Shown one piece after another: positions 5,791-54,982 of a stretch of 64,000 nt of DNA. Within the stretch, counting starts at the first letter, position 1; every line of letters begins with the position of its first letter. Where the stretch lies: contig JACPQN010000066.1 of assembly GCA_016190485.1 (NCBI GenBank), forward strand, positions 8,446 through 72,445. Reading direction: 5' to 3'. Under the pieces are notes generated by a model. It was not told the origin of the DNA. It did no database searches and worked only from the letters and a program-made list of their open reading frames with translations. A program made the translations under genes and the position numbers. The DNA is from Chloroflexota bacterium (lineage in GTDB: Bacteria > Chloroflexota > Dehalococcoidia > SHYD01).

Positions 5791-6057
5791 CTAGTCCGCC
5801 GGTGGCTCCTGGTCGGCGGCGGCTGATTGCGGGGCGTAGGGAAAGGCGGCCCGCTCCGCCACCAGGGTCAGCAGGGTGGCCGCGGCGCCCCTGGGCTGGT
5901 AGATCCCTCGCTCCCACTCGCTGATGGTCTGCTGGCGGGTGCCCAGCTCCTGGGCCAACTCCTCCTGGGTGAGGCCCAGGTGGTCCCGCAACGCCCGCAC
6001 CGTCGCGGCGCTCCAGCGGGGGCGGGGTCTTCTCCTCGACGGCTTCATGTCCAGCAT
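5791..6057 (-). CDS. XRE-family helix-turn-helix transcriptional regulator
   Basis: LGLTQEELAQELGTRQQTISEWERG HTH_XRE signature. Confidence 0.7.
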   Translation of the reverse strand: MLDMKPSRRRPRPRWSAATVRALRDHLGLTQEELAQELGTRQQTISEWERGIYQPRGAAATLLTLVAERAAFPYAPQSAAADQEPPAD

Positions 6058-6156
6058 GCTAGGCGCTCATCACCGCCCCGTCAAGGCGGCCCCGCCGGAC
6101 GGGATGCGCTATAATCGCTGCAAAGGGGCTCTGCCCCACCCTTCTCAGGAGGCTCC

Positions 6157-31107: not shown

Positions 31108-31369
31108 TGGCTGACTCCCTTCCTCCTCGCGCTGGCGCTCACTGGAGTTGAAGGCGACGGCCCGTCCCATGCTTTCGAATGACGATGGCGCCACTCGTGC
31201 CGCTGCAACTGGCAGGATCATAGCATAGGGGTAAAGTCCCATTCCAGCCACTAGCCGAGGACTGAGGACTGCTGGCCGTGGGGGTAGGGCAAGGGGTGGT
31301 GGCAGTGGGCGGTTGACAGGGGGCACTAGAACGCATATTCTTGCGGCAGCATAGGTTAGGAGGAGATGA

Positions 31370-32536
31370 GTGGCTTACAGCCCCGTTTACGATGCCCCTC
31401 CGTTCACTGATTTCGCTTCAGTAACGCCGGATACACGCCTAGAAGAGCTGAATCTGAACTGGCGGGAGCAGGACCTTCCAGAGGGATCCCGTACAAAGCA
31501 CGTCCATCGTCTCCATCCCTACCTGGGCAAATTCGTTCCTCAACTAGTCGAAATCTTCCTGAGGAAGTACCAACCAAGGGTTGTGTGTGACCCATTCTGT
31601 GGATCAGGAACGACGCTGGTTGAAGCCAACGCTATGGGCATAGATGCAATTGGGTGTGACATTTCTCCCTTCAATGTCTTACTTACGAAAGTCAAGACTG
31701 CCGAGTACAACATTGCCAAATTGGAAAAAGAAATCAAGGACATTGTTACGAGGATTACTCTTGCCTTGAAGCCAGGGCTTTTTGAAGGTGAGGTCGAAGA
31801 CACTGACAATGCATATTTGCGAAGCTGGTACGCGCAGCGAGCAAGGGTCCAGCTTCTTTTCTTTAAGTCCCTGATTCCACAGTACGAACATCAAGATCTT
31901 CTCAAAGTGATCCTTTCGAGAGCAGCACGGTCGGCTAGGCAAACCACCCATTTCGACTTGGATTTCCCAAAGCGGCCGCAGACAGAGGATTACTATTGCT
32001 ACAAACATGGGAGGACGTGCCAGCCCACGAGCGATGCGCTGGGCTTCTTGACTCGCTATTGCTGGGACACGCTTAGAAGGATACGCGCTTTCTCGGAACT
32101 GCGAACTCGTGCTGCTGTGCTCTATAAGTGTGACGACTCTCGTAACATGGAGTTCCCAGAAGTAGACATGATACTGACCTCCCCGCCGTATGTGGGACTC
32201 ATCGACTACCACGAACAACACCGCTATGCCTACGAGCTGCTTGAAATGCCCATGCAAGAGGAGCAAGAAATTGGCGCCGCAAAAAGAGGTGCCTCGGAAA
32301 CAGCTCAGCGTGCGTATATAGAGAATATAGGCACAGTGTTTCGGAACCTTCGCGAGGGACTGCCTGCAGATGGGGTAGCGGTTATAGTGGTGCATGACCG
32401 TCGCAGGCTCTATGAAGGATTGGCAGAACAACTTGGGTACCGACAAGAACTGGAGTTACGCCGGCATGTAAACCGACGTACAGGCCGGAGAGCGGGAGAT
32501 TTTTACGAAAGCGTGTTGGTGTGGCGGAAGACATAG
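31370..32536 (+). CDS. DNA amino-methyltransferase (N4-C or N6-A; motif I before TRD before motif IV = alpha-like order)
   Basis: motif I VVCDPFCGSGTT, motif IV TSPPY; GC clearly lower than flanks; AGGAGG RBS. Confidence 0.75.
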   Translation: MAYSPVYDAPPFTDFASVTPDTRLEELNLNWREQDLPEGSRTKHVHRLHPYLGKFVPQLVEIFLRKYQPRVVCDPFCGSGTTLVEANAMGIDAIGCDISPFNVLLTKVKTAEYNIAKLEKEIKDIVTRITLALKPGLFEGEVEDTDNAYLRSWYAQRARVQLLFFKSLIPQYEHQDLLKVILSRAARSARQTTHFDLDFPKRPQTEDYYCYKHGRTCQPTSDALGFLTRYCWDTLRRIRAFSELRTRAAVLYKCDDSRNMEFPEVDMILTSPPYVGLIDYHEQHRYAYELLEMPMQEEQEIGAAKRGASETAQRAYIENIGTVFRNLREGLPADGVAVIVVHDRRRLYEGLAEQLGYRQELELRRHVNRRTGRRAGDFYESVLVWRKT

Positions 32537-32663
32537 ACCCTGAGGCGCTCGCAACCAGCGTAGGTCAGTGTTTCAGCGCAGGACCAGACATAGGGAAGCG
32601 AATTGTCGAGGCATTCCAGCAGACCTTTGCCAACCTCTTGCACGCAGAGTGCAAGCAAAGCGG

Positions 32664-33269
32664 ATGCGAGAGATCATTAGGGACAAGAATCCTTATTTAT
32701 ATCGCGCCAGCGGCGTAAACACTTGCCAGGAAATAGTTCAGCGGGCGCTGCAAGACTACATTAGCGCTAGTGTGGAGAATAATTTTGGTGCCTTCTTTGA
32801 GGCGGTTGCTAGGATATTCTCAGGAGGGGTTAAGCCCGTTGGGGGTGGTGAGGTTGACCTGGATGTGCGGAAGGCTGATGTGGCTTTCCTCTATGCGATG
32901 AAGTCGGGATCGAAGGGCTTCAACTCGTCAAGCTACGACAAAGCCAGGCGCGACTTATTATCGGCAGAACGCAGGCTACGTCAGGACAAAGTGCGAACGG
33001 AGAAGCGGATTGCGTTTGCGTATGGCAAGAGACAGGAAACAGATAAAGATGGCATTATCCAGCTGACTAGTAAGGCTTTTTGGGGAGAAGTAAGTGGTGA
33101 TCCACTCTTCTATAAGAAGCTGTTAAATGCCTGCGCGCTGTTATCTCCTTTGTATACTGCTGATCTACAGGCACCCTATGACCGTCTATTGGAAGAAGCT
33201 CATTCGCTGTTTTGTGAAGAAGATGGAATTAACTGGGATAAAGTGCTGAAGTTAGTTTTTGGTGAGTAG
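32664..33269 (+). CDS. candidate Type II restriction endonuclease partner of the methyltransferase (start uncertain: ATG 32568 or 32664, or GTG 32521 in another frame with a frameshift)
   Basis: low-GC ORF immediately downstream of the MTase; GEVDLDV...AFLYAMKSG could be a D...(D/E)xK core; an overlapping frame-1 ORF 32521..32718 also reads protein-like, suggesting a possible frameshift. Confidence 0.35.
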   Translation: MREIIRDKNPYLYRASGVNTCQEIVQRALQDYISASVENNFGAFFEAVARIFSGGVKPVGGGEVDLDVRKADVAFLYAMKSGSKGFNSSSYDKARRDLLSAERRLRQDKVRTEKRIAFAYGKRQETDKDGIIQLTSKAFWGEVSGDPLFYKKLLNACALLSPLYTADLQAPYDRLLEEAHSLFCEEDGINWDKVLKLVFGE

Positions 33270-33271
33270 CT

Positions 33272-33298
33272 TCATGCGCATCCTGCACTTCGCTGACC
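33272..33298 (+). repeat. 27-bp direct repeat, copy 1 (tcATGCGCATCCTGCACTTCGCTGACC = duplicate of the sbcD start)
   Basis: identical 27 nt at 33272-33298 and 34143-34169. Confidence 0.9.
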
Positions 33299-33447
33299 CT
33301 CGTTCGTGGTCCGCCAGCCAGGTGCTCACTTCGTTCAGCATGACATACTAGGGCACCAGTTGAGGACGACCTGGATGTTATTACGTGGGGATATAAGCCT
33401 GCTCGTATGCAACTAGGACAACAGTAGCCAATGATAAAACGAAAGAG

Positions 33448-33714
33448 GTGGTAAAGATGGCCCGATGCATCGTTGACAGCTGCACGGACTTCGCGACCCA
33501 TAATATTGGTATTCGGCTACGGCGACTAAACACCTCGGCAGTATGGGCTCCCAATACCGACGCCTTTGTTTGCGATGCCCACGCGACTGCAGGATTCAGG
33601 ATTCAGATTTTACTCACACCAAACTCAACAGGAACAATCCGGACAGAAGTTAGTTCGGTTCCTCCAGGCAGGATAGTTCGACGAACGACTCCGATCATCC
33701 ATCCGGCGCAGTGA
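33448..33714 (+). CDS. hypothetical small Cys/His-containing protein
   Basis: 88 aa ORF in the low-GC segment, CIVDSC...CDAH; no confident family. Confidence 0.25.
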   Translation: MVKMARCIVDSCTDFATHNIGIRLRRLNTSAVWAPNTDAFVCDAHATAGFRIQILLTPNSTGTIRTEVSSVPPGRIVRRTTPIIHPAQ

Positions 33715-33851
33715 TTATTTGTGCAGGACGGATTATATATGCAAAGCCGGAAGCGCTTGCACTACCTATATGTGGTGGTGAAGGCGCTCGAGACCGATGC
33801 CTTTGTGCTGACCGCATACTTGACCGATAGAGTAAAGAGGGGAGTCCAGCT

Positions 33852-34055
33852 ATGGCCGGAAAACTCGTGAAGATCTGGTACGATCCCGAAGGTGACTATC
33901 TGGAGGTGATCTTCGAGCAAAAGGAGGGCTACTTCCGGGAGACGGCCAGCGACCAGGTGATGGAGAAGGTCGACGTGGAAGGTAATGTCCTCGGCTTCTC
34001 TATCTTGCGGGTGAGCGCTCTGAAACAGAAGCCGCTAGAAGTCGCCCTGTCCTGA
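33852..34055 (+). CDS. DUF2283 family small protein
   Basis: KIWYDPEGDYLEVIF pattern (YDxExDxLxI) typical of DUF2283; GGAG RBS. Confidence 0.55.
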   Translation: MAGKLVKIWYDPEGDYLEVIFEQKEGYFRETASDQVMEKVDVEGNVLGFSILRVSALKQKPLEVALS

Positions 34056-34092
34056 ACGGTAGATGCCGCATCCCGCCTTGGCCCGTCATTGA

Positions 34093-34139
34093 CAAGCCCT
34101 CACCCTTACCCTCTCCCAGAGGGAGAGGGAGGTAGCTAA
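34093..34139. repeat. hairpin repeat family copy 3 (CCTCACCCT-TA-CCCTCTCCC-aga-GGGAGAGGG)
   Basis: read directly; just upstream of sbcD. Confidence 0.8.
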
Positions 34140-34142
34140 GAG

Positions 34143-34169
34143 TCATGCGCATCCTGCACTTCGCTGACC
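34143..34169 (+). repeat. 27-bp direct repeat, copy 2 (authentic sbcD start)
   Basis: identical to 33272-33298. Confidence 0.9.
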
Positions 34170-35455
34170 TCCATATCGGGGTGGAGAACTACGGGCGGGT
34201 GGACCCTGCCACGGGCCTCTCCACCCGGCTGGGGGACTTCCTGCGGGCGCTGGACCAGGTGGTGGACTACGCGCTGGCCAACGAGGTGGACCTGGTGCTC
34301 TTCTGCGGCGACGCCTACAAGAGCCGGGATCCGTCCCAGACCCACCAGCGGGAGTTCGCCCGCCGCATCATGCGCCTGACGGGCGGGGGGGTGCCGGCCT
34401 TCCTGCTGGTGGGCAACCACGACCTTCCCTACGCGGCGGGGCGGGCCACGGCGCTGGACATCTACCAGACCCTGGGGGTGCCTGGCGTGACCGTGGGGCG
34501 GGAGCTGGGGACGCAGGTGGTGGAGAGCCGCCGCGGGGAGCGGCTCCAGATCGTGGCGGTGCCGTGGCTCAACCGGAGCTGGCTGCTGGCCCAGGAGGAG
34601 CACAAGAACCTGGCCGCCCGGCCCCTGAACGAGCTGATGGAGGAGAAGCTGCAGCGGGTGCTGCAGGTGGAGTTCTCCCGCCTGGATCCGGAGCTGCCGG
34701 CGGTGCTGGCGGGCCACCTGGCCCATGCCGAGGCGGTGCCGGGGTCGGAGCGCCGGATGACAGTGGGCAGCGACCCGGCGTTCCTCCTGAGCACCCTGAC
34801 GGACCCTGGCGGCCCTTCGACAAGCCCTTCGACAAGCTCAGGACACCGCTCAGGACGCGGCATGGTGGACTACGTGGCCCTGGGGCACATCCACAAGCAG
34901 CAGGCGCACCAGAGCCGGGGGGTGCCTGTGGTCTACGCCGGCAGCCTCCAGCGGGTGGACTTCGGCGAGGAGGAGGACCAGAAGGGCTTCTACGTGGTGG
35001 AGATCGATCCGGCGCGGCCCGCGGGGGAGAGGCTGCGCTCCTACGACTTCGTGCCAGTGGAGGCCCGGGCCTTTGTGACCATCCGGGTGCGGTCTCATAG
35101 TGGGAACCCCACGGAGGCGGCGCTGCGGGCCATCGCGCGGCGGGAGCGAGACATCCGGGACGCCATCGTCCAGGTGCAGGTGGAGCTGGCCGCAGGCCAG
35201 GAGGGCCTGCTGGACGACGCGGCCATCAGGCGCGCGCTGGCTTCAGCGCACTACATCGCAGGGATCAGCCGCGAGGCGCCGGACAGCCCGCGGCGGCGTC
35301 TGGGCGAGGTGAAGGTGGAGGAGCTGGCGCCGCTCCAGGCGCTGGAGCTGTACCTGCGGGCCCGGGAGACGCCGTCGGAGCGGACGCAGGCGCTGCTGGA
35401 GTACGGTCGCCGGCTTATTGAGTCGCCTGAGGCGGCCAGCGAGATGGCGCCCTGA
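34145..35455 (+). CDS. sbcD: exonuclease SbcD (Mre11-type phosphoesterase) carrying an in-frame minisatellite insertion
   Basis: MRILHFADLHIG, GDxYK, GNHD metallophosphoesterase motifs; insertion encodes GGPSTSPSTSSGHRSG at 34811-34857. Confidence 0.85.
   Translation: MRILHFADLHIGVENYGRVDPATGLSTRLGDFLRALDQVVDYALANEVDLVLFCGDAYKSRDPSQTHQREFARRIMRLTGGGVPAFLLVGNHDLPYAAGRATALDIYQTLGVPGVTVGRELGTQVVESRRGERLQIVAVPWLNRSWLLAQEEHKNLAARPLNELMEEKLQRVLQVEFSRLDPELPAVLAGHLAHAEAVPGSERRMTVGSDPAFLLSTLTDPGGPSTSPSTSSGHRSGRGMVDYVALGHIHKQQAHQSRGVPVVYAGSLQRVDFGEEEDQKGFYVVEIDPARPAGERLRSYDFVPVEARAFVTIRVRSHSGNPTEAALRAIARRERDIRDAIVQVQVELAAGQEGLLDDAAIRRALASAHYIAGISREAPDSPRRRLGEVKVEELAPLQALELYLRARETPSERTQALLEYGRRLIESPEAASEMAP
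34811..34857 (+). repeat. minisatellite (cccttcgacaag x2 + ctcaggacaccg units) inserted in frame in sbcD
   Basis: 12-bp units read directly; same units at 37001, 40461, 43512 and in reverse orientation intergenically. Confidence 0.85.
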
Positions 35456-36582
35456 TGCAGGGGGCCTTCCGCATCGCCCGCATCGCAGGGGTGGAGATCA
35501 GCGTCCACTACACCTGGCTCTTCGCCTTCTTTCTCATCACCTGGACCCTGGGGATCGGGTATTACCCCCATGAGCACCCTGGGTGGAGCCCGCTCCTCTA
35601 CTGGGTCGCGGGCGGGCTGTCGGCCCTGCTGCTTTTCGGGTCGGTGCTGCTGCACGAGCTGGCCCACTCCTTCATGGCCCTGGCCCGGGGACTGCCGGTG
35701 CAGGGCATCACCCTGTTCATCTTCGGTGGGGTCAGCTCCATCCAGATGGAGTCGCAGAGCGCGGGGGACGAGTTCATCATCTCTGCCGTGGGGCCGCTGA
35801 CCAGCCTGGCGCTGTCGGGCGGCTTCTGGACGCTGTCGTCGCTGCTGCCCAACGAGAGCGTGGCGGGGGCCATGCTCCAATACCTCACCTTCGTCAACGT
35901 GCTGCTAGCCGTGTTCAACCTGGTACCGGGGTTTCCGCTGGACGGCGGACGGCTGCTGCGGGCGGCGCTGTGGGGCATCACCGGCAGCCTGTCCAGGGCC
36001 ACCGGCATTGCGGCCCGGGTGGGCCAGATGGTGGCCTTCCTGCTCATCGTGTGGGGAGTCGTGCAGCTCTTCTCGGGCAACATCCTGGGTGGGCTGTGGA
36101 TCGCCTTCATCGGGTGGTTCCTCAACAGCGCGGCGGAGTCCAGCCGCCAGGAGGTGACCGCAGGCGAGCTGTTCCGCCGCTTGCGGGTGGGCGACCTGAT
36201 GGACCCGTCGCCGGAGACGGTACCCCCGGAGCTTTCGGTGGACGCCCTGGTGCGCGACTACATCCTGCGCCGGGGCTGGCGGGCCCTGCCGGTGTGCCAG
36301 GACCGGCGACTGCTAGGCATCGTGAGCTTGACAGACGTGCGGGAGGTGGAGGAGCCGCGCTGGCCCGCGACCCGCATCGAGGAGGTGATGACCCGCGCGC
36401 CGCTGTACACCGTGGCCCCCGGGACGGAGCTGATGGAGGCGCTGGATTTGCTGGCGGACCACCGCATCCATCAGGTGCTGGTGGTGGAGGACGGCCACCT
36501 GGTGGGGCTGCTGACCCGCAGCCACATCCTGGAGTACCTCCAGTTGCGGGAAGAGCTGGGCTTCCGGGGGGCGCGCCGCTAG
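35455..36582 (+). CDS. site-2 protease (M50) family zinc metalloprotease with tandem CBS domains
   Basis: HELAHSF (HExxH), LDGG motif, 6 TM segments, C-terminal CBS pair; start overlaps sbcD stop (TGATG). Confidence 0.8.
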   Translation: MQGAFRIARIAGVEISVHYTWLFAFFLITWTLGIGYYPHEHPGWSPLLYWVAGGLSALLLFGSVLLHELAHSFMALARGLPVQGITLFIFGGVSSIQMESQSAGDEFIISAVGPLTSLALSGGFWTLSSLLPNESVAGAMLQYLTFVNVLLAVFNLVPGFPLDGGRLLRAALWGITGSLSRATGIAARVGQMVAFLLIVWGVVQLFSGNILGGLWIAFIGWFLNSAAESSRQEVTAGELFRRLRVGDLMDPSPETVPPELSVDALVRDYILRRGWRALPVCQDRRLLGIVSLTDVREVEEPRWPATRIEEVMTRAPLYTVAPGTELMEALDLLADHRIHQVLVVEDGHLVGLLTRSHILEYLQLREELGFRGARR

Positions 36583-36605
36583 GGCGCAGGGCCGACGGGT
36601 CCGAC

Positions 36606-37406
36606 ATGGCTATGAAGGATGTCTCGCGGGCGCAGGCCGTGGTCTTCGACCTGGACGGCACCTTGGTGGACACCTATGCCATCAACCTGAAGGCCACGCA
36701 GCACGTCCTGCGGCAGTTCCTGGGGCGCCTGCCGCCGGAGGAGGAGGTGGCGCCCCACTACGGGGCGCCGCTGCGGGAGATCATGGCGCACTTCGCGCCG
36801 GGCCAGGAAGCGGCCATGGTGGCCGAGTTTGAGGCCTACTACCTGGAGCATCAGGAGGCGATGGTGCGGCCCTTTGCGGGCGTCTCCGAGATGCTGCGAG
36901 TGTTGCGGCAACGGGGTTATCCCCTGGCGATCCTCTCCAACAAGCGCAAAGAGCCGGGGCTGCGGGAGCTGCGGGCCTGCGGGCTGGCGGAGCACTTCCG
37001 CCCTTCGACAAGCCCTTCGACAAGCTCAGGACACCGCTCAGGACACCGCTCAGGACAGCGCTCAGGACGCAGCTCGGTGCTGTTCCTGGAGGACCTGCGG
37101 GCGCCCAAGCCGGCGCCGGAGGCGCTGCGGCAGTCCGCGGAGCTGCTGGGGGTAGACGTGCGGCGAGTGCTCTACGTGGGCGATAGCGTCCTGGACGTGC
37201 AGTGCGCCCGGAAGGCCGGCGCCCGGAGCGCGGCCGCGCTGTGGGCCGCCGGGGATGGTTCGGCTGGGCTCACCACAAGTGGTTCGGCTGGGCTCACCAC
37301 AAGCCGGGAGCGAGTGCTGGCCCAGGAGCCGGATCACGTGCTGACGTCGGTGGCGGAGCTGCTGGCGCTGTGCCCGCCACTGATCGGTGATCCGCGGGAG
37401 AGGTGA
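36606..37406 (+). CDS. HAD-superfamily hydrolase (phosphoglycolate-phosphatase-like) with two in-frame repeat insertions
   Basis: motif I FDLDGTLVDT, motif II ILSNK, motif IV GDSVLD; insert PSTSPSTSSGHRSGHRSGQRSG (37001-37070) and tandem 24-mer GSAGLTTS x2 (37256-37303). Confidence 0.75.
   Translation: MAMKDVSRAQAVVFDLDGTLVDTYAINLKATQHVLRQFLGRLPPEEEVAPHYGAPLREIMAHFAPGQEAAMVAEFEAYYLEHQEAMVRPFAGVSEMLRVLRQRGYPLAILSNKRKEPGLRELRACGLAEHFRPSTSPSTSSGHRSGHRSGQRSGRSSVLFLEDLRAPKPAPEALRQSAELLGVDVRRVLYVGDSVLDVQCARKAGARSAAALWAAGDGSAGLTTSGSAGLTTSRERVLAQEPDHVLTSVAELLALCPPLIGDPRER
37001..37070 (+). repeat. minisatellite insertion in HAD gene
   Basis: gcccttcgacaagcccttcgacaag + (ctcaggacaccg)x3-4. Confidence 0.85.
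37256..37303 (+). repeat. perfect 24-bp tandem duplication in HAD gene
   Basis: ggttcggctgggctcaccacaag(t/c) x2. Confidence 0.85.
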
Positions 37407-37445
37407 TGATATTCAGCCTAAGCCCGTCAGAAAGGCGAGCTGGGT

Positions 37446-37497
37446 AGATTTCACCCTCACCCTATCCCTCTCCCCTCGAGCCTCGAGGGCGAGGGAA
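37446..37497. repeat. hairpin repeat family copy 4 (TCACCCTCACCCT-AT-CCCTCTCCC-ctcgagcctcgag-GGCGAGGG-AAC)
   Basis: read directly; loop itself contains the palindrome CTCGAG..CTCGAG. Confidence 0.75.
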
Positions 37498-37735
37498 CCG
37501 CGAGGCGGCGTGCTAGCAACTCCCGCATTTGCCTACCCACCACGAGCACAGGGACGTTCATGGTGGGCTCATAATGCCACCACAAACTCAAGATTCTTAC
37601 GGCGGCGAGCCTAGCGAAAACAATTCCAACGAACTTTTGAAATTCGCCCAATTACGGAGCTAAGTCGATCCATAATGTGACGTGGGGTGATGATATCGGG
37701 ACAGGTGCATACAAAAGCGAACGAGGAGGGGAAAG

Positions 37736-38077
37736 ATGGAACCTCAGGAGTCTGGATTCAATGTTCAGCTTCAGTGGCGACAGAGGTGGCAATCCGGGCT
37801 TGGGCAAGCGGCTGAACAGGGTGAAAAATCGTCGACGCTTGGCATTTGCGGTAGGAAAGAACATCTCCAGTTGCGCTTCTATTCATCAGATTTTGCATCA
37901 GATTTTTCCGCCACCGCCCAGTTTTCTTGGCGACAAGTTATGCAAGCTTTGATTAACAATAACCCTGGCCTCTTTGGAGTTCTTGAAGAGCCACTCCATC
38001 ACGTCTTCGCCGATGCACTGATAGAAATGGGGTTTGAAGTGCCCGGCTTCCCACCGGAAGATGACGACGATTTCTAG
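37736..38077 (+). CDS. hypothetical small protein with acidic C-terminus (EDDDDF)
   Basis: 113 aa ORF in an AT-rich (about 50% GC) island, GGAGG RBS. Confidence 0.3.
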   Translation: MEPQESGFNVQLQWRQRWQSGLGQAAEQGEKSSTLGICGRKEHLQLRFYSSDFASDFSATAQFSWRQVMQALINNNPGLFGVLEEPLHHVFADALIEMGFEVPGFPPEDDDDF

Positions 38078-38186
38078 AAAGACGCGGCAACACCGTAGAA
38101 ATGCTCATAGCGCTTGAGGTCTCTTTTCAAGAAAGGCTCGCTCGAATATCTTTCTTGCAGGCCTCGCGCGGAAAGGGAGAACTACT

Positions 38187-39488
38187 ATGGCGAACATTGA
38201 TGATCACCTGATTCGAAATGTGTTCGACCAATACACTCAGTTGGAAAATCGCCTGACCAACGCCTTGTTTCAGGTCTTTCGCCACGAGCCTGACATAGCT
38301 AGGGAGTTCGTGGTGTGGGCAGGCGGGCCGCCGCACCAACGCGAGCTGCTGCAACTCGCATGCCAGATGACGCCCGCGTCAAATCTAAGTGAACTCGAGA
38401 AAGAGGACTTCCCACGGGCAAGGACCATCCCAGACGGATGGATATTTGATCCCGAAGGCGAGTGGGCTGTAGTGATCGAAAACAAGGTGACTGCAACGCT
38501 AGAGCGCAATCAGATAGAGGGTCACATAACGACAGCGAGGGCTCTCGGATTCAGGGCTATCTTTCCTGTAGTCCTCACCGCGGATCGGGAGGAACCCCCA
38601 GATTTGCGCCAGTGGGCGCCCGCCGGAGTCACTGTGCGGTGGCGGCCGTGGAGAGAGCTATACGTGGAGCTGAAGCCGAAGGATTCGAGCTGGTGGGTTA
38701 AAGAGTTCCTCGGCTACATGGAGGAATTGGAGTTCAGATTTCACGAAGGAGGCAATTCGGAAGTGGAGCTGACAGGCTTTTCTGGGATCCCCTTCGACAA
38801 GGAACACGGGTACAACGCACTCCAGGCGCGTGCCCAATTGCTGGGCCTCATGGCGGCATTGCGGAAACATCCAGGGCTGCTGACGTGCTACCCAAATGTC
38901 CAGCCAGAAGGAAAAAAGACACCGACGTCGGGCGCCATGTGGGACACGATAAAATTCTCCCCTGAGGTCCGCACAACAGCGCCTCACCTTACCCTCGTCA
39001 TCGACCGCGATGACGTGCGACTTCAAGTGATTTTGCCCAATGCGGACAAAACCAAAGGCTGGCAGCGCCTGGTCAGACGAAAAAGAGAAGCGGTCGAGGA
39101 GATTCTGGAGCTCGTCCATGGGCAGGTCCGGAATCTCAGGGGCAGGCCGAAGTGTTTTCTCGACCTGTATCAGCGTCATTTCCTTTACTTGGGGGCGGAG
39201 GGCGTTATAGACGCCAGATTGGAAGTTGACCTGGACGCCGTCTTGGACAAGCAGGACGCGAAGATAGACGGGAAGGTTAAAACGCGCAGAGAATGGTGGC
39301 CGGCTGTATCTGGTCTCATTGCTGCCCCAAAGACGGGGGCAAATCTTGAGCTTTCCCTGGTGTTAAGGTACCGTTACTCAGACAGTGCCACGACGAGTGT
39401 CTTAAACAGCCCAGACTTTGTCGAGGAGGCCGCCGCGGCCTTCATTGCCCTTCACCCCTGGTATGACTTCCTCACCCAAGAAGAGTAA
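38187..39488 (+). CDS. hypothetical protein with N-terminal PD-(D/E)XK nuclease-like core
   Basis: E(20)...IPDGWIF-x12-AVVIENKV matches the E/PD/ExK restriction-endonuclease-fold arrangement; ~300 aa C-terminal region without recognisable motifs; low GC. Confidence 0.45.
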   Translation: MANIDDHLIRNVFDQYTQLENRLTNALFQVFRHEPDIAREFVVWAGGPPHQRELLQLACQMTPASNLSELEKEDFPRARTIPDGWIFDPEGEWAVVIENKVTATLERNQIEGHITTARALGFRAIFPVVLTADREEPPDLRQWAPAGVTVRWRPWRELYVELKPKDSSWWVKEFLGYMEELEFRFHEGGNSEVELTGFSGIPFDKEHGYNALQARAQLLGLMAALRKHPGLLTCYPNVQPEGKKTPTSGAMWDTIKFSPEVRTTAPHLTLVIDRDDVRLQVILPNADKTKGWQRLVRRKREAVEEILELVHGQVRNLRGRPKCFLDLYQRHFLYLGAEGVIDARLEVDLDAVLDKQDAKIDGKVKTRREWWPAVSGLIAAPKTGANLELSLVLRYRYSDSATTSVLNSPDFVEEAAAAFIALHPWYDFLTQEE

Positions 39489-39580
39489 ATCGAGCAAAGG
39501 GGCCTTGACTAGCCGAATTGCGTGGCCTTCTGCTGCATTTGCACATTTGTGTGACCAAGCCATTTTCCTGGAGGAGTAGT

Positions 39581-41275
39581 ATGAAGATCACCTGCTACGG
39601 GGGGGTGGGGCAGATCGGCGGCAACAAGGTGCTGCTGGAGGACGGCCTTACTCGCCTCTTTTTCGATTTCGGCATCCCCTTCGGCGACCGGGCACGTTTC
39701 TTCGAAGAGTACCTGAACCCGCGCCCCGGCGCGGGGCTGCTGGACGTGATGGAGATGGGGCTGCTGCCGCCCCTGCGCGGCATCTACCGCAGCGACCTGG
39801 TGCCGGCCGGCCGGTTCTGGGAGCGGGTGGAGCGGTCGCAACACCTGAGGCCCCACCTGCGAGACCTGGAGCGCCTGGACGGGGTGCTGGTCTCCCATGC
39901 CCACGTGGACCACAACGGGTATCTCTCCTTTCTTGATCCCGGAATCCCCATCTACTCCTCGGCCATGACGGGGTTCATCGCCAAGGCCATGCAGGACAGC
40001 GGACAGACGGACTTCGAGCGGGAGTCGGTGTACGCCGTGCCCCGGAAGGAGAGCGGCGGCGTGCTCACTACGGTGACCTCCAGCAGGTCGAATCCCGCGC
40101 CAGCGCTGCAGCGGCCCTACTACTTCCCCGACCTGGCCGATCTCAGCGCCGAGGCCCTGGACTTCTGGCGTCAGACGCCCGCGGCCCGTCCCATGGATGC
40201 CGTGCTCCCCCGACAGGCGGAGGGCATCGGCGAGCTGCCGGTGCGCTTCTTTCCCGTGGACCACTCCATCTTCGGCAGCAGCGCCTGCGCGGTGGAGACC
40301 TCCGCCGGCTGGGTGGTGTACACCGGCGACCTGCGCTTCCAGGGTGGGACGGCGGCACTGACTCGGGACTTCATCCGGGAGGCGGCCCGGCTCCGCCCGC
40401 GGGTGCTCATCTGCGAAGGGACACGCCTGTCGCCGGAGGGGAACGCCGAGGCGCTCTTCGGCCCTTCGGCAAGCTCAGGACACCGCAGGCTCAGGACGGC
40501 GCCCTTCGGCAGGCTCAGGACGGCGCCGGTGACGGAGGAGCAGGTGCGGGCCAACGCGCTGCGGGCCATCGGGGGCGCCAGCGGCCTGGTGGTGGCCGAC
40601 TTCGGGCCCCGCAACATCGAGCGGCTGCGGGCCTTCCTGGAGATCGCCCGGGAGACCGGGCGGCAGCTCGTGGTGCTGGACAAGGACGCCTACCTGCTGG
40701 GCGCGATGCGCCTGGTGGACTCCGGTGTGCCGGGGGTGGAGGAGGCGCCCAACCTGCTGGTGTACCAGGACCTGCGCGCCACCCTGGCCCTGTGGCAGCG
40801 GGACCTGCGCGACCGGCTGGCCAGCAGGATCGTTGGCCCCAGCCAGGTGCAGGCGCACCTGGGGGAGTTCATCCTCTGCTTCAGCTTCTGGGACATCAAG
40901 AACCTCATTGACATCGATCCGGGGGAGGGCCTCTACCTCTACTCCTCCAGCGAGGCCTATAGCGAGGAGCAGGAGCTGGACCTGTGGCGGCTGCGCAACT
41001 GGCTGCAGCACTTCGGCCTGACGCCCCGGGGTCTTCCCCAGGAGAGCACCGACGAGCGGGGCAGGAAGGTCTACAGGACGCCCCCCGGCGAGGAGGGCTA
41101 CCACGCGTCGGGCCACGCCACGGGCGACGAGATCCTGGCCATGGTGCGGGAGATCAACCCAAAAACGGTGGTGCCGGTGCACACGGAGCACCCGGAGCTG
41201 TTCGTGGAGGGACTGAAGGGGTCCGGAATCGAGGTGCGGTTGCCGGCGTACGGCGAGGCGCTGGAGTTCGGGTAG
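39581..41275 (+). CDS. MBL-fold beta-CASP nuclease (RNase J / Artemis-type family) with in-frame repeat insertion
   Basis: SHAHVDHNG (HxHxDH), ...ASGHA and PVHTEHPE (beta-CASP motifs B/C), N-terminus ITCYGGVGQIGGN like RNase J; insert GPSASSGHRRLRTAPFGRLRTAP at 40461-40523; GGAGGAG RBS. Confidence 0.7.
   Translation: MKITCYGGVGQIGGNKVLLEDGLTRLFFDFGIPFGDRARFFEEYLNPRPGAGLLDVMEMGLLPPLRGIYRSDLVPAGRFWERVERSQHLRPHLRDLERLDGVLVSHAHVDHNGYLSFLDPGIPIYSSAMTGFIAKAMQDSGQTDFERESVYAVPRKESGGVLTTVTSSRSNPAPALQRPYYFPDLADLSAEALDFWRQTPAARPMDAVLPRQAEGIGELPVRFFPVDHSIFGSSACAVETSAGWVVYTGDLRFQGGTAALTRDFIREAARLRPRVLICEGTRLSPEGNAEALFGPSASSGHRRLRTAPFGRLRTAPVTEEQVRANALRAIGGASGLVVADFGPRNIERLRAFLEIARETGRQLVVLDKDAYLLGAMRLVDSGVPGVEEAPNLLVYQDLRATLALWQRDLRDRLASRIVGPSQVQAHLGEFILCFSFWDIKNLIDIDPGEGLYLYSSSEAYSEEQELDLWRLRNWLQHFGLTPRGLPQESTDERGRKVYRTPPGEEGYHASGHATGDEILAMVREINPKTVVPVHTEHPELFVEGLKGSGIEVRLPAYGEALEFG
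40461..40523 (+). repeat. minisatellite insertion in beta-CASP gene (variant units cccttcggcaag / ctcaggacggcg)
   Basis: read directly. Confidence 0.8.
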
Positions 41276-41285
41276 GCAGACTTGC

Positions 41286-43179
41286 GATGTTGCTCTCAGA
41301 AGTCGAACTTGAAAATTTCAAGGGTGTATTCACGAGACAGCGCATTGGCGGGTTGAGACGAGTCAATACGCTCATCGGCCGGAACAATGGTGGCAAGACA
41401 TCTTTGTTGGAAGCCTTGTGGGCTGTCCGAGACTCTCTGGTTGGTGGGCAAGTGGCAGAAGATATGACGACGTTGTTGCCATTTCGTGAGGCTGATAGGG
41501 TGATGAGAATAAGGCTGACATTTGAACTCGAGCAGGAAGAATACCAGCAACTACGCGACCACTTGGAAGTCGATCTCCAGCCTAATATCACTACGATCCC
41601 TGCGGCCTGCACCTGGGAATTTGTTTGGGAGCCAAGCCTGGGCACTGGAAACAGGCTACTTCCAACTTCATGTACATTACGGCTGAATGACCGAAACTTG
41701 ACGGTTTGGGTCGCAGATAGTGCGGGTGATTTGAGGGCTGCGCGCTGGGATGAGGCGCGATCGTTCTACGTCAGTAGAAGGCAGGGACTGGTGCTTCAGC
41801 TTCACAGCATCGGGAGCGTCCAATCGCGTCTACGAGTACAAGGTCCCAATGATGCAGCGCAGTTCGGGATGAATCTTGCGCTTGGCTTTGCCCAAAAGTT
41901 GAGGTTTCGCAGAACAGTCCGGGTGGCCGACGATCGGTCGCCAGCGTCACAGAACAGCGAGCTAGATGAGCAAAGCAAGAACATCTCTCAAGTGCTTCTC
42001 ACGCTGAAAAACAACGAAGCGCAGGTTTTCGAGAGGATCGAGAACACTCTGTGCAGAATTCTGCCTGAAGTACGGGGACTTAGTACGCCCTTAGAGGGTA
42101 CTGAAACGGCCCTAAAGCCAGCCCTCGAAGCTAGCAGACTTGAGAAGCATGCCTTTTACCTGTCTGAAATGGGTTTCGGCACACAGCAGGTACTTGCTCT
42201 CCTGACTACAATCTTTTGCTCTCCCAGTGGAAGCCTAGTCTTGATCGAGGAACCCGAGATATGTCTTCATGCGGATGCCCAAAGAAGTCTCGCAAGTTTT
42301 TTGGTGGAGTACTCAAAGAAAACCAACACGCAATTTATAATGACTACTCATAGCCCCATATTCGCTCCGCAAGGAAGCGAAGGGGCGACTTACCTTGTTA
42401 AGTGGGACCAAGAGAATGGGACTACTTATTCCCGCGTTCGCGAGGGAGAAGCATCGATAATCAAAAGAGAGTTGGGATGGCGAAACGCGGATCTTTTCAT
42501 GAAAGACGGGGTTGTCTTTTGGGAGGGGGAGAGTGAGGATGCTGCAATGCCTATCCTTATTGATGCACTCGGTTATGGAGAAAGGATGCCCGCCATCGCT
42601 TCCATCAGTTTGCGTGGCAGTGTAGCGGATAGGCTGAGAGTGCTACGTGAGTTCCTTCGCTATCTTCAGGGTTCAGACCTGAAACCCTTTGTTTTCTCTG
42701 ACGACGACGAGCACGTGGCGACAACTATTCAGAACTTAATCGCTGAAGGTCTTCTGCCGCAATTGAACTACCACATTTGGGGAAGGAGTCCTGGAAATCT
42801 TTCTGACGTATTGTCAGGGTTGGAATTTGAGGATAATTTCCAGGTTTCGCAACTTATTGAAGCTGCCAACGCCCAGGCAGCGGAATCGGGTCAAGCTGAG
42901 AGACTAACTACTGACGGATTCAGGAAAAGTCGACAGACCATTAAGACAAAGAAAAAGACAAGCAAAGCACTCAACGACTATTTTCACAATAAAGTTGGTC
43001 GAGGGTTGGATAAACCCACGCTGAATAAAGCGTTAGCTCTTATGGTCGCTCGTGAGCTTCGAAATGAAATGCCGAGGTCTGTTCAAACATATGAATTCAA
43101 GGGGGCGATAAAAGATCTGTTCGATGTCCTGTATCCCGTTCGTAAAGGAGAGGCCGAGCAACCCGAGGACCAGATGTAG
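41286..43179 (+). CDS. OLD-family ATP-dependent nuclease (ABC ATPase + TOPRIM), class 1 / orphan GajA-like
   Basis: Walker A GRNNGGKTSLLEAL, Walker B LVLIEEPEICLH, H-loop FIMTTHSP, TOPRIM-like VVFWEGESED and DxD FVFSDDDEH; GC about 50% versus about 68% in flanks. Confidence 0.65.
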
Positions 43180-43181
43180 TC

Positions 43182-45839
43182 ATGGTCCCTCTGAAGCTGG
43201 CGCTGCGCAACTTCATGGCCTACCGGCGGCTGGAGCCGCCGCTGGACTTCACGGGCATCCACGTGGCGTGCCTCTCCGGGCCGAACGGGGCCGGCAAGTC
43301 GGCCCTGCTGGATGCTATGACCTGGGCCCTGTGGGGCCAGGCCCGGGCCCGGTCCGACGACGACCTGATCACCCTGGGCGAGAGCGAGATGGAGGTGGAG
43401 CTGGAGTTCGGCCTGGGGGAGGAGCGCTACCGGGTGCTGCGGAAACGGACCCGGGGCGTCCTGCGGCGGCCCGGTCAGTCCATCCTGGAGCTCCAGATAT
43501 GGGGTGGGGATGGCCCTTCGACAAGCCCTTCGACAAGCTCAGGACACCGCTCAGGACACCGCTCAGGACAGGGCCCTTCGATAGGCTCAGGACAGAGCCT
43601 GTTCCGCCCGCTGACGGGGAACACGCTGCGGGAGACGCAGCGGCAGATCGAGGGGCTGCTGCGGCTGGACTACCAGACCTTCATCAACAGTGCGCTGCTT
43701 CTCCAGGGAAGGGCCGACGAGTTCACCCTGAAGGCGCCGGGCGAGCGCAAACGGGTGCTGGGGGAGGTGCTGGGCCTCTCCCGCTACGACGCCTATGAAG
43801 CCCTGGCCAGGGAGCAGGCCCGCCGCCGGGAGGGCGAGCTGCAGGGCCTGCGGGCCGAGATGACCTCCCTGGAAGAGCAGGTGAGCCACCGGGAGGAGTT
43901 TGAGTCGGAGCTGCAGGGGATCCGGCGGGCGCTTCAGGAGATGAGCATCCAGAGCAAAGCCCAGGAAGAGCGGCTGCGTGCGCTCCAGGAGGCGCAGCGG
44001 CTGCGGGCAGAGAAGCAGGCCCGCCTGGTCGAGGCGCGTGCTCGGACGCAACAGGCTGAGGTGGAGCTACAGGAGCAGCGGCAGCGAGAGGGGGCGCAGA
44101 TGGCGCGCCTCCAGCAGTTCCGGGAGATGCTGGACCAGCGGGAAGCCATCGAGCAGGGGCTGGAGCGCTATCGGAGGCTGGTCGCGGCCGACGATGCGCT
44201 GTCGGCCGGGCTGCAGCAACTGGTGGCGCTGCGGGAGCAGGCCACGGCGCTGGAGCGTACGGTGGAGGCGGCCAGGAGCCGGCTGGAAGCACAGGCCCTG
44301 GTCTTAGAGCGGGAGACCACCGGACTGCGAGAGGTGGCGGCGCGGCGGAGCGGCTTGGCCGAGGCGCAGCAGGCGGCGCGGCGGACGCTGGCGGCCCTGG
44401 CGGAGAAAGACGCAGAGCTCAAGAGCCAGCGGGAGGCGCTGGAGGCGCTGGCGGGGCGCATCGGCGTGCTGGAGCACAGCAATCAGGAGATCACCCGCCA
44501 GGGGCAGGAGATCCGGGCCAAGGCCGAGCAACTGGCCCACCCCGGCGTCCCGGGGGTGTGCCCCCTGTGCGGCACTGAGCTGGGGCCCGAGGGTCACCAG
44601 CGGATCCTGGAGGAGTACCAGGGGGAGCTGGAGCGCCAGCGGGAGCGCTATCGCGAGAACGACCGCGCCATCAAGGAGCTTCAGAAGGAGCAGCAACAGC
44701 GCCAGGCCGGCGCGGCGGCCCTGGAGGCGGCCACGAACCGAGAGCGGGCCGCGGCCCAGGCCCAGGCGGCCACTGCGGCGCAGGGGCTGGCGGAGGCGGA
44801 GAAGGCGGCCACATCCCTGGTCGAGGCCGAGGCCCGCCTGAAGACGATCCAGGAGGGCCTGAGGGCCAACGCCTATGCGCCGGCGGAGCAACAGGCGCTG
44901 GTGGAGGTGCAGCGCCAGATCGCCGGCCTGGGATATAACCAGGAGGAGCACCGGCGCGTGCGCGAGGAGCTGGCCGCCTCAGGCGAGTGGCTCGCCAAAG
45001 GCGAGCGCCTCCAGGAGGCCCTGCGCCGATTGCCCGCGGAGGAGACGGAGCTGGCCAGCGTGCGGGAGGCCGCGGCCCGCTGGGAACAGCGGGCCGCCCA
45101 GGAGGCGGCGCTGGGCGCGGCGCTGGCGGAGGAGCTGGCGGCCCTGCCCGATACCGCCCAGGAGACGGTGGCCGCCCAGCAGAACTTGGAGCAGACCCGC
45201 TCTCAGCTCATGCAGGCCAATGCCGAGCTGGGGCGGGTGCAGACCCTGGTGGACCGCTGCCGGGAGCTGGAGGGCAACATGCGGGAGCGGCGGCGGCAGA
45301 TGACCCAGACGGAGGTAGAGAAGGGAATTTATGAAGACCTCTCCCTGGCTTTCGGGCGTCGGGGGGTGCAGGCGTTGCTTATCGACGCGGCGCTGCCGGA
45401 GCTGGAGGAGGAGGCTAACAGACTCCTGGGTCGCATGACTGACAACTGCCTCAGCCTGCGCCTGGAGACCCAGCGCCAGACCCGCGGCGGCGGCATGGCG
45501 GAGACGCTTGACATAAGAATTGCGGACGAGCTGGGGACCCGGGCCTATGAGCTGTACAGCGGCGGCGAGGCCTTTCGGATCAACTTCGCGCTGCGCGTCG
45601 CCATCTCCAAGCTGCTGGCCCGGCGGGCAGGGGCGCCCTTGCCGACCCTGGTGATAGACGAGGGCTTCGGCACTCAGGACGCTGCGGGCCGGGAGAAGCT
45701 TATCGAGGCGGTGAACGCCATCGCGGGGGACTTCGAGCGGGTGCTGGTGATCACCCACATCGACGAACTGAAGGACGCCTTCCCGGTGCGGATCGAGGTG
45801 ACCAAGACGCCGGAGGGGTCACGGGTGGAGGTGGTGTGA
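43182..45839 (+). CDS. sbcC: exonuclease SbcC (Rad50/SMC-like ATPase) with in-frame minisatellite insertion
   Basis: N-terminal Walker A GPNGAGKSALLDA, long coiled coil, zinc hook CPLCG, C-terminal signature/Walker B; insert at 43512-43597. Confidence 0.85.
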   Translation: MVPLKLALRNFMAYRRLEPPLDFTGIHVACLSGPNGAGKSALLDAMTWALWGQARARSDDDLITLGESEMEVELEFGLGEERYRVLRKRTRGVLRRPGQSILELQIWGGDGPSTSPSTSSGHRSGHRSGQGPSIGSGQSLFRPLTGNTLRETQRQIEGLLRLDYQTFINSALLLQGRADEFTLKAPGERKRVLGEVLGLSRYDAYEALAREQARRREGELQGLRAEMTSLEEQVSHREEFESELQGIRRALQEMSIQSKAQEERLRALQEAQRLRAEKQARLVEARARTQQAEVELQEQRQREGAQMARLQQFREMLDQREAIEQGLERYRRLVAADDALSAGLQQLVALREQATALERTVEAARSRLEAQALVLERETTGLREVAARRSGLAEAQQAARRTLAALAEKDAELKSQREALEALAGRIGVLEHSNQEITRQGQEIRAKAEQLAHPGVPGVCPLCGTELGPEGHQRILEEYQGELERQRERYRENDRAIKELQKEQQQRQAGAAALEAATNRERAAAQAQAATAAQGLAEAEKAATSLVEAEARLKTIQEGLRANAYAPAEQQALVEVQRQIAGLGYNQEEHRRVREELAASGEWLAKGERLQEALRRLPAEETELASVREAAARWEQRAAQEAALGAALAEELAALPDTAQETVAAQQNLEQTRSQLMQANAELGRVQTLVDRCRELEGNMRERRRQMTQTEVEKGIYEDLSLAFGRRGVQALLIDAALPELEEEANRLLGRMTDNCLSLRLETQRQTRGGGMAETLDIRIADELGTRAYELYSGGEAFRINFALRVAISKLLARRAGAPLPTLVIDEGFGTQDAAGREKLIEAVNAIAGDFERVLVITHIDELKDAFPVRIEVTKTPEGSRVEVV
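43512..43597 (+). repeat. minisatellite insertion in sbcC
   Basis: gcccttcgacaag x2, ctcaggacaccg x3, gcccttcgataggctcaggacag. Confidence 0.85.
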
Positions 45840-45967: not shown

Positions 45968-46003
45968 CTTGTCCTGAGCACCGTCGAAGGGCTAGCCGAA
46001 GGG
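45968..46003 (-). repeat. intergenic copy of the minisatellite unit in reverse orientation
   Basis: cttgtcctgagcaccgtcgaagggctagccgaaggg = reverse complement of the cccttcg...ctcaggacaag units. Confidence 0.7.
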
Positions 46004-50825: not shown

Positions 50826-50867
50826 AGACACCTCTTGTGCGAGACTGTTTAGTAAGACCCCCAAATC

Positions 50868-50980
50868 CCTTGCAAGGGGCCCTTCGGCTGCGCTCAGGAC
50901 AAGGTTCACGGAACCCCTTCGGGGTTTGACATATTCGGGGGCACATCCCCCGAACCCCCTGGCAAAGCATGCCCTGAGCC
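50868..50980. repeat. structured repeat cluster upstream of uvrA: inverted pair of minisatellite units plus nested small hairpins
   Basis: cccttcggctgcgctcaggacaagg ... gccctgagcctgccgaaggg (inverted), AACCCCttcGGGGTT, TTCGGGGGcacaTCCCCCGAA. Confidence 0.7.
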
Positions 50981-51243
50981 TGCCGAAGGGAGGCTGCGCC
51001 TCTCTGCACGCTCCCTTGTTAAACACTCTCCTTGTGCTCCGGTTGACCGATGCTTATGCCCCCTGTGGGGCGCCTGTTATAGGGCGTACGGGGAGCGCCG
51101 GCCGGAGCTATCGTTGGTCTGAATAGGGAATTGTAGCACTAAATGGGGAACTTGTGCGACTTGGGGAATTGGGGAGTTGCCGTAACCCGCGCGGCGTTGC
51201 TCGGTTATACTGGGTGTATACTGGCTACTGAGGACACTGCGGC

Positions 51244-54948: not shown

Positions 54949-54982
54949 GGCCTGTCCTGAGCAACGTCGAAGGGCTTGTCCC
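54949..54982 (-). repeat. intergenic minisatellite-unit copy (reverse orientation)
   Basis: ggcctgtcctgagcaacgtcgaagggcttgtcc. Confidence 0.7.

Follow-up and report, generated by a model that had tools for sequence, protein, structure and literature searches.

Why should sbcD and sbcC, which encode the two subunits of the SbcCD nuclease, stand well apart on a Dehalococcoidia chromosome (Chloroflexota; contig JACPQN010000066.1), and what are the genes that lie between them? SbcCD (Mre11-Rad50) is a universal nuclease of double-strand breaks and hairpins, and to our knowledge the accessory factors of the bacterial complex are poorly known. The locus occupies 31.3-45.9 kb of the stretch analysed here (64 kb, hereafter the window, to which all positions refer unless a relative is named). 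The evidence throughout is comparative genomics on metagenome-assembled genomes (MAGs), with the relatives, all metagenome-assembled contigs, coded L001 onward. The window is chromosomal, with ribonucleotide reductase, a class A penicillin-binding protein, and uvrA all present; identical proteins are on record for a Chloroflexi MAG, on a 90-kb contig, and its nearest sbcD genes are from Dehalococcoidia MAGs (≤68% identity). The explanation favoured here, with fair confidence, is a lineage-specific chromosomal repair operon (sbcD-M50/CBS-HAD-beta-CASP-sbcC, beside uvrA) that has received three foreign, low-GC defence blocks at its junctions, probably by recombination, and in which the beta-CASP protein would be an accessory nuclease. 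What appears new on this comparison is an SbcCD locus in which an uncharacterised beta-CASP nuclease is the centre of the remodelling and defence cassettes occupy the gene junctions; no description of such an arrangement was found in the literature on beta-CASP proteins with RmuC or SbcC, on EF2904, or on sbcCD as a defence hotspot.

Domain and family scans (Pfam, TIGRFAM-type models, and PADLOC) placed all of the genes at 31.3-45.9 kb on the + strand, with sbcD and sbcC separated by 7,726 bp and six genes (Table 1). A preliminary description of the sequence had put the two genes 7.7 kb apart, with an M50 protease carrying CBS domains, a HAD hydrolase, and a beta-CASP nuclease between them and the protease ATG overlapping the sbcD stop as TGATG, all of which was borne out (the overlapping TGA and ATG read ctGATGc). 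SbcD passes its family model (TIGR00619), and SbcC has a recognisable head (AAA_23, 68 bits), zinc hook (Rad50_zn_hook, 29.7 bits; cut-off, 24.3), and SbcC_Walker_B match, with GPNGAGKS and CPLCG visible in the translation, though it scores 281.8 bits against TIGR00618, under the cut-off of 478.5. As in the sbcDC of E. coli, the genes share one strand with sbcD first, SbcD is a metallophosphoesterase, and SbcC is an ABC-ATPase with a coiled coil and CxxC zinc hook; unlike in E. coli, three conserved and three foreign genes fill the 7.7 kb between them, and in this class sbcC often pairs with a beta-CASP gene instead. The assumption that sbcD and sbcC are normally adjacent fails in the class. 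A hidden Markov model search found sbcC in 5 of 80 sbcD loci, and 59 of the 61 loci with ≥5 kb on both sides were without it, so the split is the rule and the window represents one conserved way of making it. Most Dehalococcoidia/SAR202-type genomes (L005-L080) have sbcD alone, with no sbcC within 5-10 kb.

Two independent contigs (L081 and L082; beta-CASP 65% identical) carry sbcD, M50/CBS, a 68-amino-acid (aa) open reading frame (ORF), HAD, beta-CASP, and sbcC in that order without the low-GC inserts, and their HAD/beta-CASP and beta-CASP/sbcC junctions overlap, stop over start. The high-GC genes of the window thus form a compact unit that is conserved in the clade, and synteny shows that this operon core has been passed on vertically. 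The M50/CBS gene lies directly 3' of sbcD in the window, L001, L004, L081, and L082, and the extended operon proposed in the preliminary description is supported both by the insert-free loci and by this adjacency in L001 and L004. Other relatives show variants: sbcD-M50/CBS-sbcC (L001, L004), adjacent sbcD-sbcC (L003), sbcD-RmuC-sbcC with overlapping junctions (L002), sbcD-PIN-beta-CASP-sbcC (L051), and, in a contig that starts inside the M50/CBS gene (L083), M50/CBS-78-aa ORF-beta-CASP-OLD-RmuC-sbcC. In further relatives the usual order is glycyl-tRNA synthetase, variable restriction-modification (R-M) or toxin-antitoxin (TA) genes, beta-CASP, RmuC, and, at some distance, uvrA. The latter, on the - strand, stands a few kb 3' of beta-CASP, RmuC, or sbcC in the window and five relatives (L081, L084, L087, L088, L097).

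Against this conserved frame, three low-GC blocks stand out (~31330-34090, 37407-39580, and 41276-43181). Their genes have a GC content of 0.49-0.56 and a third-position GC content (GC3) of 0.49-0.65, whereas the five resident genes have a GC of 0.69-0.71 and a GC3 of 0.85-0.93, and within the 64 kb, 1-kb bins with GC ≤0.60 occur only at the locus (bins 31-34, 37-40, and 41-43 kb). The three low-GC cassettes of the preliminary description were therefore confirmed by the GC profile, with one limit moved: the second begins not at 37650 but at 37407, right after the HAD stop codon. The GC contrast speaks for a foreign origin of the blocks, as do the rarity and the prophage or defence settings of a protein family of the second block (below). 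Neither GC nor gene order is uniform, the former being a mosaic and the latter varying among relatives. Every GC join falls within 2-25 nt of an intact start or stop codon of co-oriented ORFs, so that the operon frame is kept. The origin of the window in a MAG contig of 90,284 bp and the abruptness of the GC switches could also be read as a chimeric assembly of low- and high-GC organisms. That explanation is very unlikely, to the point of being almost negligible, because two of the joins, R-M|sbcD (L002) and beta-CASP|OLD (L083), recur in independent assemblies with the same GC contrast; the placing of the joins at intact codons of co-oriented genes also speaks against it.

The first block opens with a type II R-M pair, a methyltransferase and an endonuclease 31 nt apart, that is collinear with a pair (71% aa identity) directly before sbcD in L002, where the GC of the pair is 0.48-0.50 compared to 0.69 for sbcD. 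An alignment of the window with L002 (blastn) runs through both genes and into a 27-bp stub that aligns with the 5' end of the L002 sbcD, and the ancestral state was accordingly R-M|sbcD. A piece of ~0.8-0.85 kb, comprising orf88, a DUF2283 gene, and a REP-like hairpin of resident type, later entered at the sbcD start and duplicated that start. Of a TA module of the DUF4258/DUF2283 type, the DUF2283 gene is present and the adjoining orf88 is without a family match. Similar scars recur among the relatives. Stubs of 17-35 codons from the sbcD 5' end lie upstream of an intact sbcD in L012 (two, nested), L037, L050, and L106, at a distance of 0.6-0.9 kb, and the DNA between stub and gene, where examined (window, L012, L037, L050), carries a TA-type cassette (HicAB, VapBC, or DUF2283). 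Further, L109 has a beta-CASP 5' stub upstream of beta-CASP, L088 has an sbcD stub that abuts beta-CASP without sbcD nearby, and in L037 a methyltransferase precedes the sbcD stub. Overall, the stubs look like the product of recurrent, recombinase-free cassette insertion at gene starts. A methyltransferase or R-M system stands directly 5' of sbcD or beta-CASP in L084 (7593-9994), L085, L099, L037 (7697-9166), and L002 (8103-9994). The 5' sides of these two genes appear to be favoured R-M sites across lineages.

The second block fills the exact point at which the HAD stop and beta-CASP start overlap in L081. It contains orf113 and a gene for a 433-aa protein (GC3 0.49 and 0.65), and over 1.9 kb it is 80% identical in nucleotides to L170 (GC ~0.55), where orf113 (90%) and the 433-aa gene (75%) immediately precede a beta-CASP gene that has diverged far from that of the window (35%). 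The 433-aa family is rare (37 hits), with D83, E98, and K100 invariant, and its members in other phyla have a prophage as neighbour (in Bradyrhizobium) or stand among defence genes, in one case adjoining Wadjet-like genes. A fold search with the model of the protein (predicted local distance difference test [pLDDT], 83) returned no match in the PDB at E ≤ 0.001 and weak PD-(D/E)XK hits; the best match, not significant, was DUF1054 (2a8e), to the C-terminal half. The protein is provisionally regarded as a PD-(D/E)XK-like nuclease from its invariant D...ExK and the source name of a homologue.

The third block is a single OLD-family gene, whose start lies 11 nt past the beta-CASP stop codon and whose end is 2 nt short of sbcC. 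The protein matches AAA_15 and AAA_21 and the PADLOC Old model (67.9 bits), the GajA model spans its residues 316-588, and the translation has an E...DxD pattern (GESED, SDDDE). A distant homologue (P0161) carries PF20469, which we take to be the OLD-type TOPRIM domain, and the protein is class-1-like. Gabija was rejected as an assignment, as no GajB UvrD-like helicase is adjacent and the gene is directly flanked by beta-CASP and sbcC. In a collection of 5.8 billion proteins, searched with a word-index prefilter and ≤8,000 candidates scored, three relatives reached E ≤ 1e-10 among the candidates scored, which makes the protein a very isolated one in sequence. Of the two closest, one (44% identity, GC 0.46) occupies the same beta-CASP/sbcC slot in L083 and the other (46% identity) is on a 2-kb contig. 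Together with the R-M pair of L002, the RmuC gene between sbcD and sbcC in that relative, the PIN toxin between sbcD and beta-CASP in L051, the methyltransferase before the stub of L037, and the HicAB/VapBC modules that L012, L037, and L050 have at the sbcD start, the OLD gene of L083, with RmuC after it, supports the view, also taken in the preliminary description, that the locus is an insertion hotspot.

Recombination anchored in conserved 5' ends would be the most likely mechanism, and the simplest that fits these facts. The blocks would arrive or be exchanged through the strongly conserved 5' ends of the three genes that follow them (sbcD, beta-CASP, and sbcC), with lower-GC relatives of the same gene framework as donors, and single-crossover or one-sided (homology-facilitated illegitimate) events would sometimes leave the 5' stubs of the target gene. 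A tRNA scan of the window found none, so a tRNA-targeted island is unlikely. An integrase-borne island or integron cassette was likewise rejected, there being no recombinase domain in the ORFs scanned at 31-46 kb, no tRNA, and no long boundary repeat other than the 27-bp stub. The locus resembles defence-island hotspots in gathering low-GC R-M, OLD-type, PD-(D/E)XK, and TA genes of variable content at one place, but differs from them in that the inserts sit inside an operon at single junctions with the frame kept, that no integrase was found, and that the 5' end of the target gene is present as duplicate stubs. The resemblance could be taken further, with the whole sbcD...sbcC cluster as a defence island or mobile module and its SbcCD-like pair directed mainly against foreign DNA and moving with the R-M, OLD, PD-(D/E)XK, and TA genes: the flanks outside the cluster differ among the window, L002, and L081, which have no common upstream neighbour, many genomes have defence and TA genes grouped near sbcD and beta-CASP, and a homologue of the 433-aa protein has the Wadjet-like neighbours noted above. 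We consider this improbable, given that the resident genes are host-like in GC3, that synteny with uvrA is kept across the class, that sbcD and sbcC have their full canonical motifs and the zinc hook, that mobility genes were not found at the cluster, and that L081 keeps the core order without any defence gene.

If the locus is a repair operon with inserted blocks, the role of its beta-CASP protein becomes the central question. The start codon (ATG, 39581) agrees with that of the NCBI protein (P0001; 564 aa). Metallo-beta-lactamase (MBL) motifs 1-4 (D, HxHxDH, H, D) and beta-CASP motifs A, B, and C are complete, motif C being His534, and D29, H106/H108/D110/H111, H228, D250, E279, H512, and H534 are invariant across 24 homologues. 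The protein does not pass the RNase J models (TIGR00649, 54.6 bits against a cut-off of 400; RnjA, 46.1 against 820). By both sequence and fold the top match was EF2904 (PDB 2az4, titled a protein of unknown function), followed by RNase J and CPSF, with Foldseek E-values of 6e-24 to 2az4 and 1e-20 to RNase J at 15-19% sequence identity; SNM1 and Artemis structures were absent from the top 50 fold matches. The AlphaFold2 model has a pLDDT of 86.7, with residues 288-313, encoded by a repeat array described below, as a disordered loop. Callebaut et al. reportedly set out in 2002 a rule for beta-CASP proteins that turns on Val versus His at motif C. An Artemis-like class was ruled out by the His at motif C and the lack of Artemis/SNM1 among those 50 folds. 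The protein is thus not Artemis-like and, though its place is in the RNase J/CPSF branch, not RNase J proper either; of the 'RNase J/Artemis-type' label in the preliminary description, the first half holds as a branch and the second does not.

Because the protein lies in that branch, a part in DNA repair is argued from gene context alone. Of 24 loci that have a homologue of ≥47% identity and extend far enough downstream, beta-CASP is directly followed by sbcC in 10, by RmuC in 10, and by the series OLD-RmuC-sbcC in one (21 of the 24 loci together), with gaps that are mostly 0-40 nt. In at least seven loci, beta-CASP-sbcC occurs without sbcD directly upstream (L086, L092, L104, L107, L108, L112, L115). 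This adjacency in Dehalococcoidia is suggestive, though not proof, of a part in the processing of DNA ends, where the protein would most likely assist SbcCD or RmuC as a nuclease of such ends or of structured DNA. It shares with EF2904 and RNase J the fold, the complete MBL and beta-CASP motifs, and the His at motif C; it differs in falling far under the RNase J family cut-off and in having neighbours of DNA repair (sbcC, RmuC, sbcD, uvrA) rather than of RNA metabolism. The likeness to eukaryotic Artemis/SNM1/PSO2 beside Mre11-Rad50, in that a beta-CASP protein is encoded with an Mre11/Rad50-type complex, is one of analogy only, since motif C is His and not Val and no such structure is among the top 50 folds.

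Several points weigh against the favoured reading. Remoter beta-CASP homologues (43-46% identity) adjoin housekeeping genes (LepA, Ffh, QueD, dCTP deaminase), and both the fold and His534 resemble RNA-acting members of the family. No recombinase, integrase, or transposase was recognised in the ORFs scanned at 31-46 kb, and, with no tRNA either, the insertion mechanism is read from the scars; an exact-repeat search found flanking repeats of only 3-5 nt (ATGA, TAG) for the second and third cassettes. The R-M (71%) and OLD (44% aa) genes in the same slots have diverged as much as or more than the flanking genes, yet are still low in GC, a combination that is not what simple recent insertion or simple vertical descent would give. 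Co-transcription of the operon is a prediction from gene order (promoter and terminator consensus scans of 31-46.5 kb gave sites not above shuffles and are uninformative on transcription units), and every relative is a metagenome-assembled contig.

The first of these points feed an alternative in which the beta-CASP protein is the RNase J-type housekeeping ribonuclease of the lineage and its place, with those of the protease and HAD genes, is a historical accident. After EF2904, RNase J and CPSF account for all of the closest folds, a Pfam RMMBL domain ('RNA specificity') accompanies the His at motif C, homologues are annotated as ribonuclease J by the Joint Genome Institute, and the homologues at 43-46% identity have housekeeping neighbours. 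The expectation of RNA activity from the fold is a serious rival to a DNA-end role. Set against this are the shortfall from the RNase J model with an uncharacterised protein as best match, the position next to sbcC or RmuC in 21 of the 24 loci, kept at near-zero gaps in lineages whose sbcD genes are only 46% identical, and the nearness of uvrA, and on balance we think the housekeeping alternative possible but unlikely.

The repair-operon reading also has a bolder form, offered tentatively as a long shot, in which the beta-CASP protein is a dedicated DNA-end or hairpin partner of SbcC (or RmuC) in Dehalococcoidia and, separately, defence and TA cassettes move from genome to genome via the conserved 5' ends of genes and leave stubs. 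Such a partner would be a bacterial counterpart of the theme of Artemis/SNM1 with MRN, arisen on the RNase J branch, and, as many genomes have sbcC right after beta-CASP with sbcD elsewhere, SbcC and the beta-CASP protein might form a nuclease complex. The Artemis analogy itself, without sequence or fold behind it, survives as a context-based hypothesis. What gives the family interest is that, in a large uncultured class (including the SAR202 type), an uncharacterised, widespread set of beta-CASP proteins is near-obligately linked in the genome to sbcC, RmuC, sbcD, and uvrA, which makes it a concrete candidate for a new bacterial DNA-repair nuclease and means that the 'ribonuclease J' annotation of such proteins may be wrong. 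The locus is, further, a natural case of the formation of a defence hotspot by single-junction insertion, with no recognisable recombinase and with stubs as scars.

Four of the resident genes carry in-frame 12-mer arrays in one orientation (units GCCCTTCGACAA / GCTCAGGACACC), each of which is an insertion missing from every homologue compared in protein and DNA alignments, and it is precisely at the arrays and the cassette boundaries that homology to L081 breaks off. The preliminary description had placed the repeat in sbcD, sbcC, and all three resident genes between them and had read it as a genome-specific mark of long residence. The HAD and beta-CASP genes do have it, but no copy was found in the M50/CBS gene; the motif CCTTCGACAAGCTCAGGACA occurs, with ≤3 mismatches, in 11 other loci from the class and is thus lineage-wide; and the arrays of sbcD, HAD, and sbcC have exact runs of 45-59 nt in common, which point to recent copying and make the arrays weak evidence for long residence. 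Their enrichment in the operon is likely due to local gene conversion or recent spread. The reading frame of the array is identical in sbcD, HAD, and sbcC, and the beta-CASP array starts likewise and then shifts. Elsewhere in the 64 kb there are only three short copies, at 15308-15331, 45968-45992 (-), and 54951-54975 (-).

Table 1. Features of the locus (positions in the window) and 5' gene stubs in related contigs (positions in the contig named).
Feature	Position	Strand	Evidence or remark
Type II DNA methyltransferase	31370-32536	+	N6_N4_Mtase 3.5e-13; PADLOC MTase_II 2.6e-87; GC3 0.54
EcoO109I-like type II restriction endonuclease	32568-33269	+	Pfam RE_EcoO109I 6.5e-30; GC3 0.50
27-bp stub: TC + first 25 nt of sbcD	33272-33298	+	exact direct repeat of 34143-34169
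Low-GC insert, stub to sbcD	33299-34090	+	orf88 and DUF2283 gene; GC ~0.50
orf88, 88 aa	33448-33714	+	no family match
DUF2283 gene	33852-34055	+	DUF2283 9.7e-08
REP-like hairpin CACCCTtACCCTCTCCCagaGGGAGAGGG	34101-34131	+	directly 5' of sbcD ribosome-binding site
sbcD, Mre11-type nuclease subunit	34145-35455	+	TIGR00619 137.8 bits (cut-off 77.65); Metallophos 2.6e-12
12-mer array in sbcD	34812-34859		absent from six homologues
M50 (site-2-type) metalloprotease, two CBS domains	35455-36582	+	Peptidase_M50 1.2e-20; CBS 1.3e-24
HAD-IA hydrolase, PpaX/phosphoglycolate-phosphatase-like	36606-37406	+	HAD_2 1.5e-35
12-mer array in HAD gene	37000-37071		absent in L081
Low-GC block 2	37407-39580	+	REP hairpin 37452-37500, leader 37513-37735, orf113, 433-aa gene
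orf113, 113 aa	37736-38077	+	within block 2
433-aa PD-(D/E)XK-like protein	38187-39488	+	Pfam: no match; D...ExK motif
Beta-CASP metallo-beta-lactamase-fold nuclease, EF2904-like	39581-41275	+	Lactamase_B_2, RMMBL
12-mer array in beta-CASP gene	40461-40524		absent from aligned homologues
OLD-family ABC-ATPase/TOPRIM nuclease	41287-43179	+	AAA_15, AAA_21; PADLOC AriA, GajA, Old; GC3 0.52
sbcC, Rad50-type ATPase with zinc hook	43182-45839	+	AAA_23, Rad50_zn_hook, SbcC_Walker_B
12-mer array in sbcC	43513-43596		absent from homologues
uvrA, syntenic anchor 3' of cluster	47913-51026	-	UvrA domains
sbcD 5' stubs, L012	528-626, 1156-1206		two, nested
sbcD 5' stub, L037	9185-9247		
sbcD 5' stub, L050	4509-4613		
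sbcD 5' stub, L106	1101-1160		
Beta-CASP 5' stub, L109	1863-1916		upstream of beta-CASP
sbcD 5' stub, L088	9906-9989		abuts beta-CASP

The two remaining resident genes are probably conserved passengers or regulators. The M50/CBS protein (Peptidase_M50, 74.2 bits; CBS, 86.7 bits over two stretches) has intact HELAH and NLVPGFPLDGG motifs. The HAD protein scores below the equivalog cut-offs for PpaX (111.9 bits against 218) and PGP (93.7 against 180). A Gph-type phosphoglycolate phosphatase of E. coli could clear the 2-phosphoglycolate freed when 3'-blocked DNA ends are cleaned. By analogy, one may speculate that the HAD enzyme clears the 2-phosphoglycolate arising from DNA-end cleaning. At 37256-37303 the HAD gene also has an in-frame 24-mer repeated twice (SGSAGLTT twice), unrelated to the 12-mers and absent from the L081 homologue.

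A scan of the whole window against Rfam at gathering thresholds gave no match. The non-coding leader of the second block (37513-37735) is ~88% identical to L170 (1-222), above the 80% of the coding part of the cassette, and could serve as a promoter or regulatory region or give a small RNA; it had no Rfam match, and its two-sequence consensus fold was without covariation. The hairpin of the form CACCCTnACCCTCTCCC...GGGAGAGGG, resembling repetitive extragenic palindromic (REP) elements, has four intergenic copies in the window (14502, 15134, 34101, and 37452), two of which stand at cassette borders. In L003 (~5930-6070), a peptide that the REP sequence can encode, PLPEGEG, occurs in frame in sbcC, in the same loop as the 12-mer array of the window.

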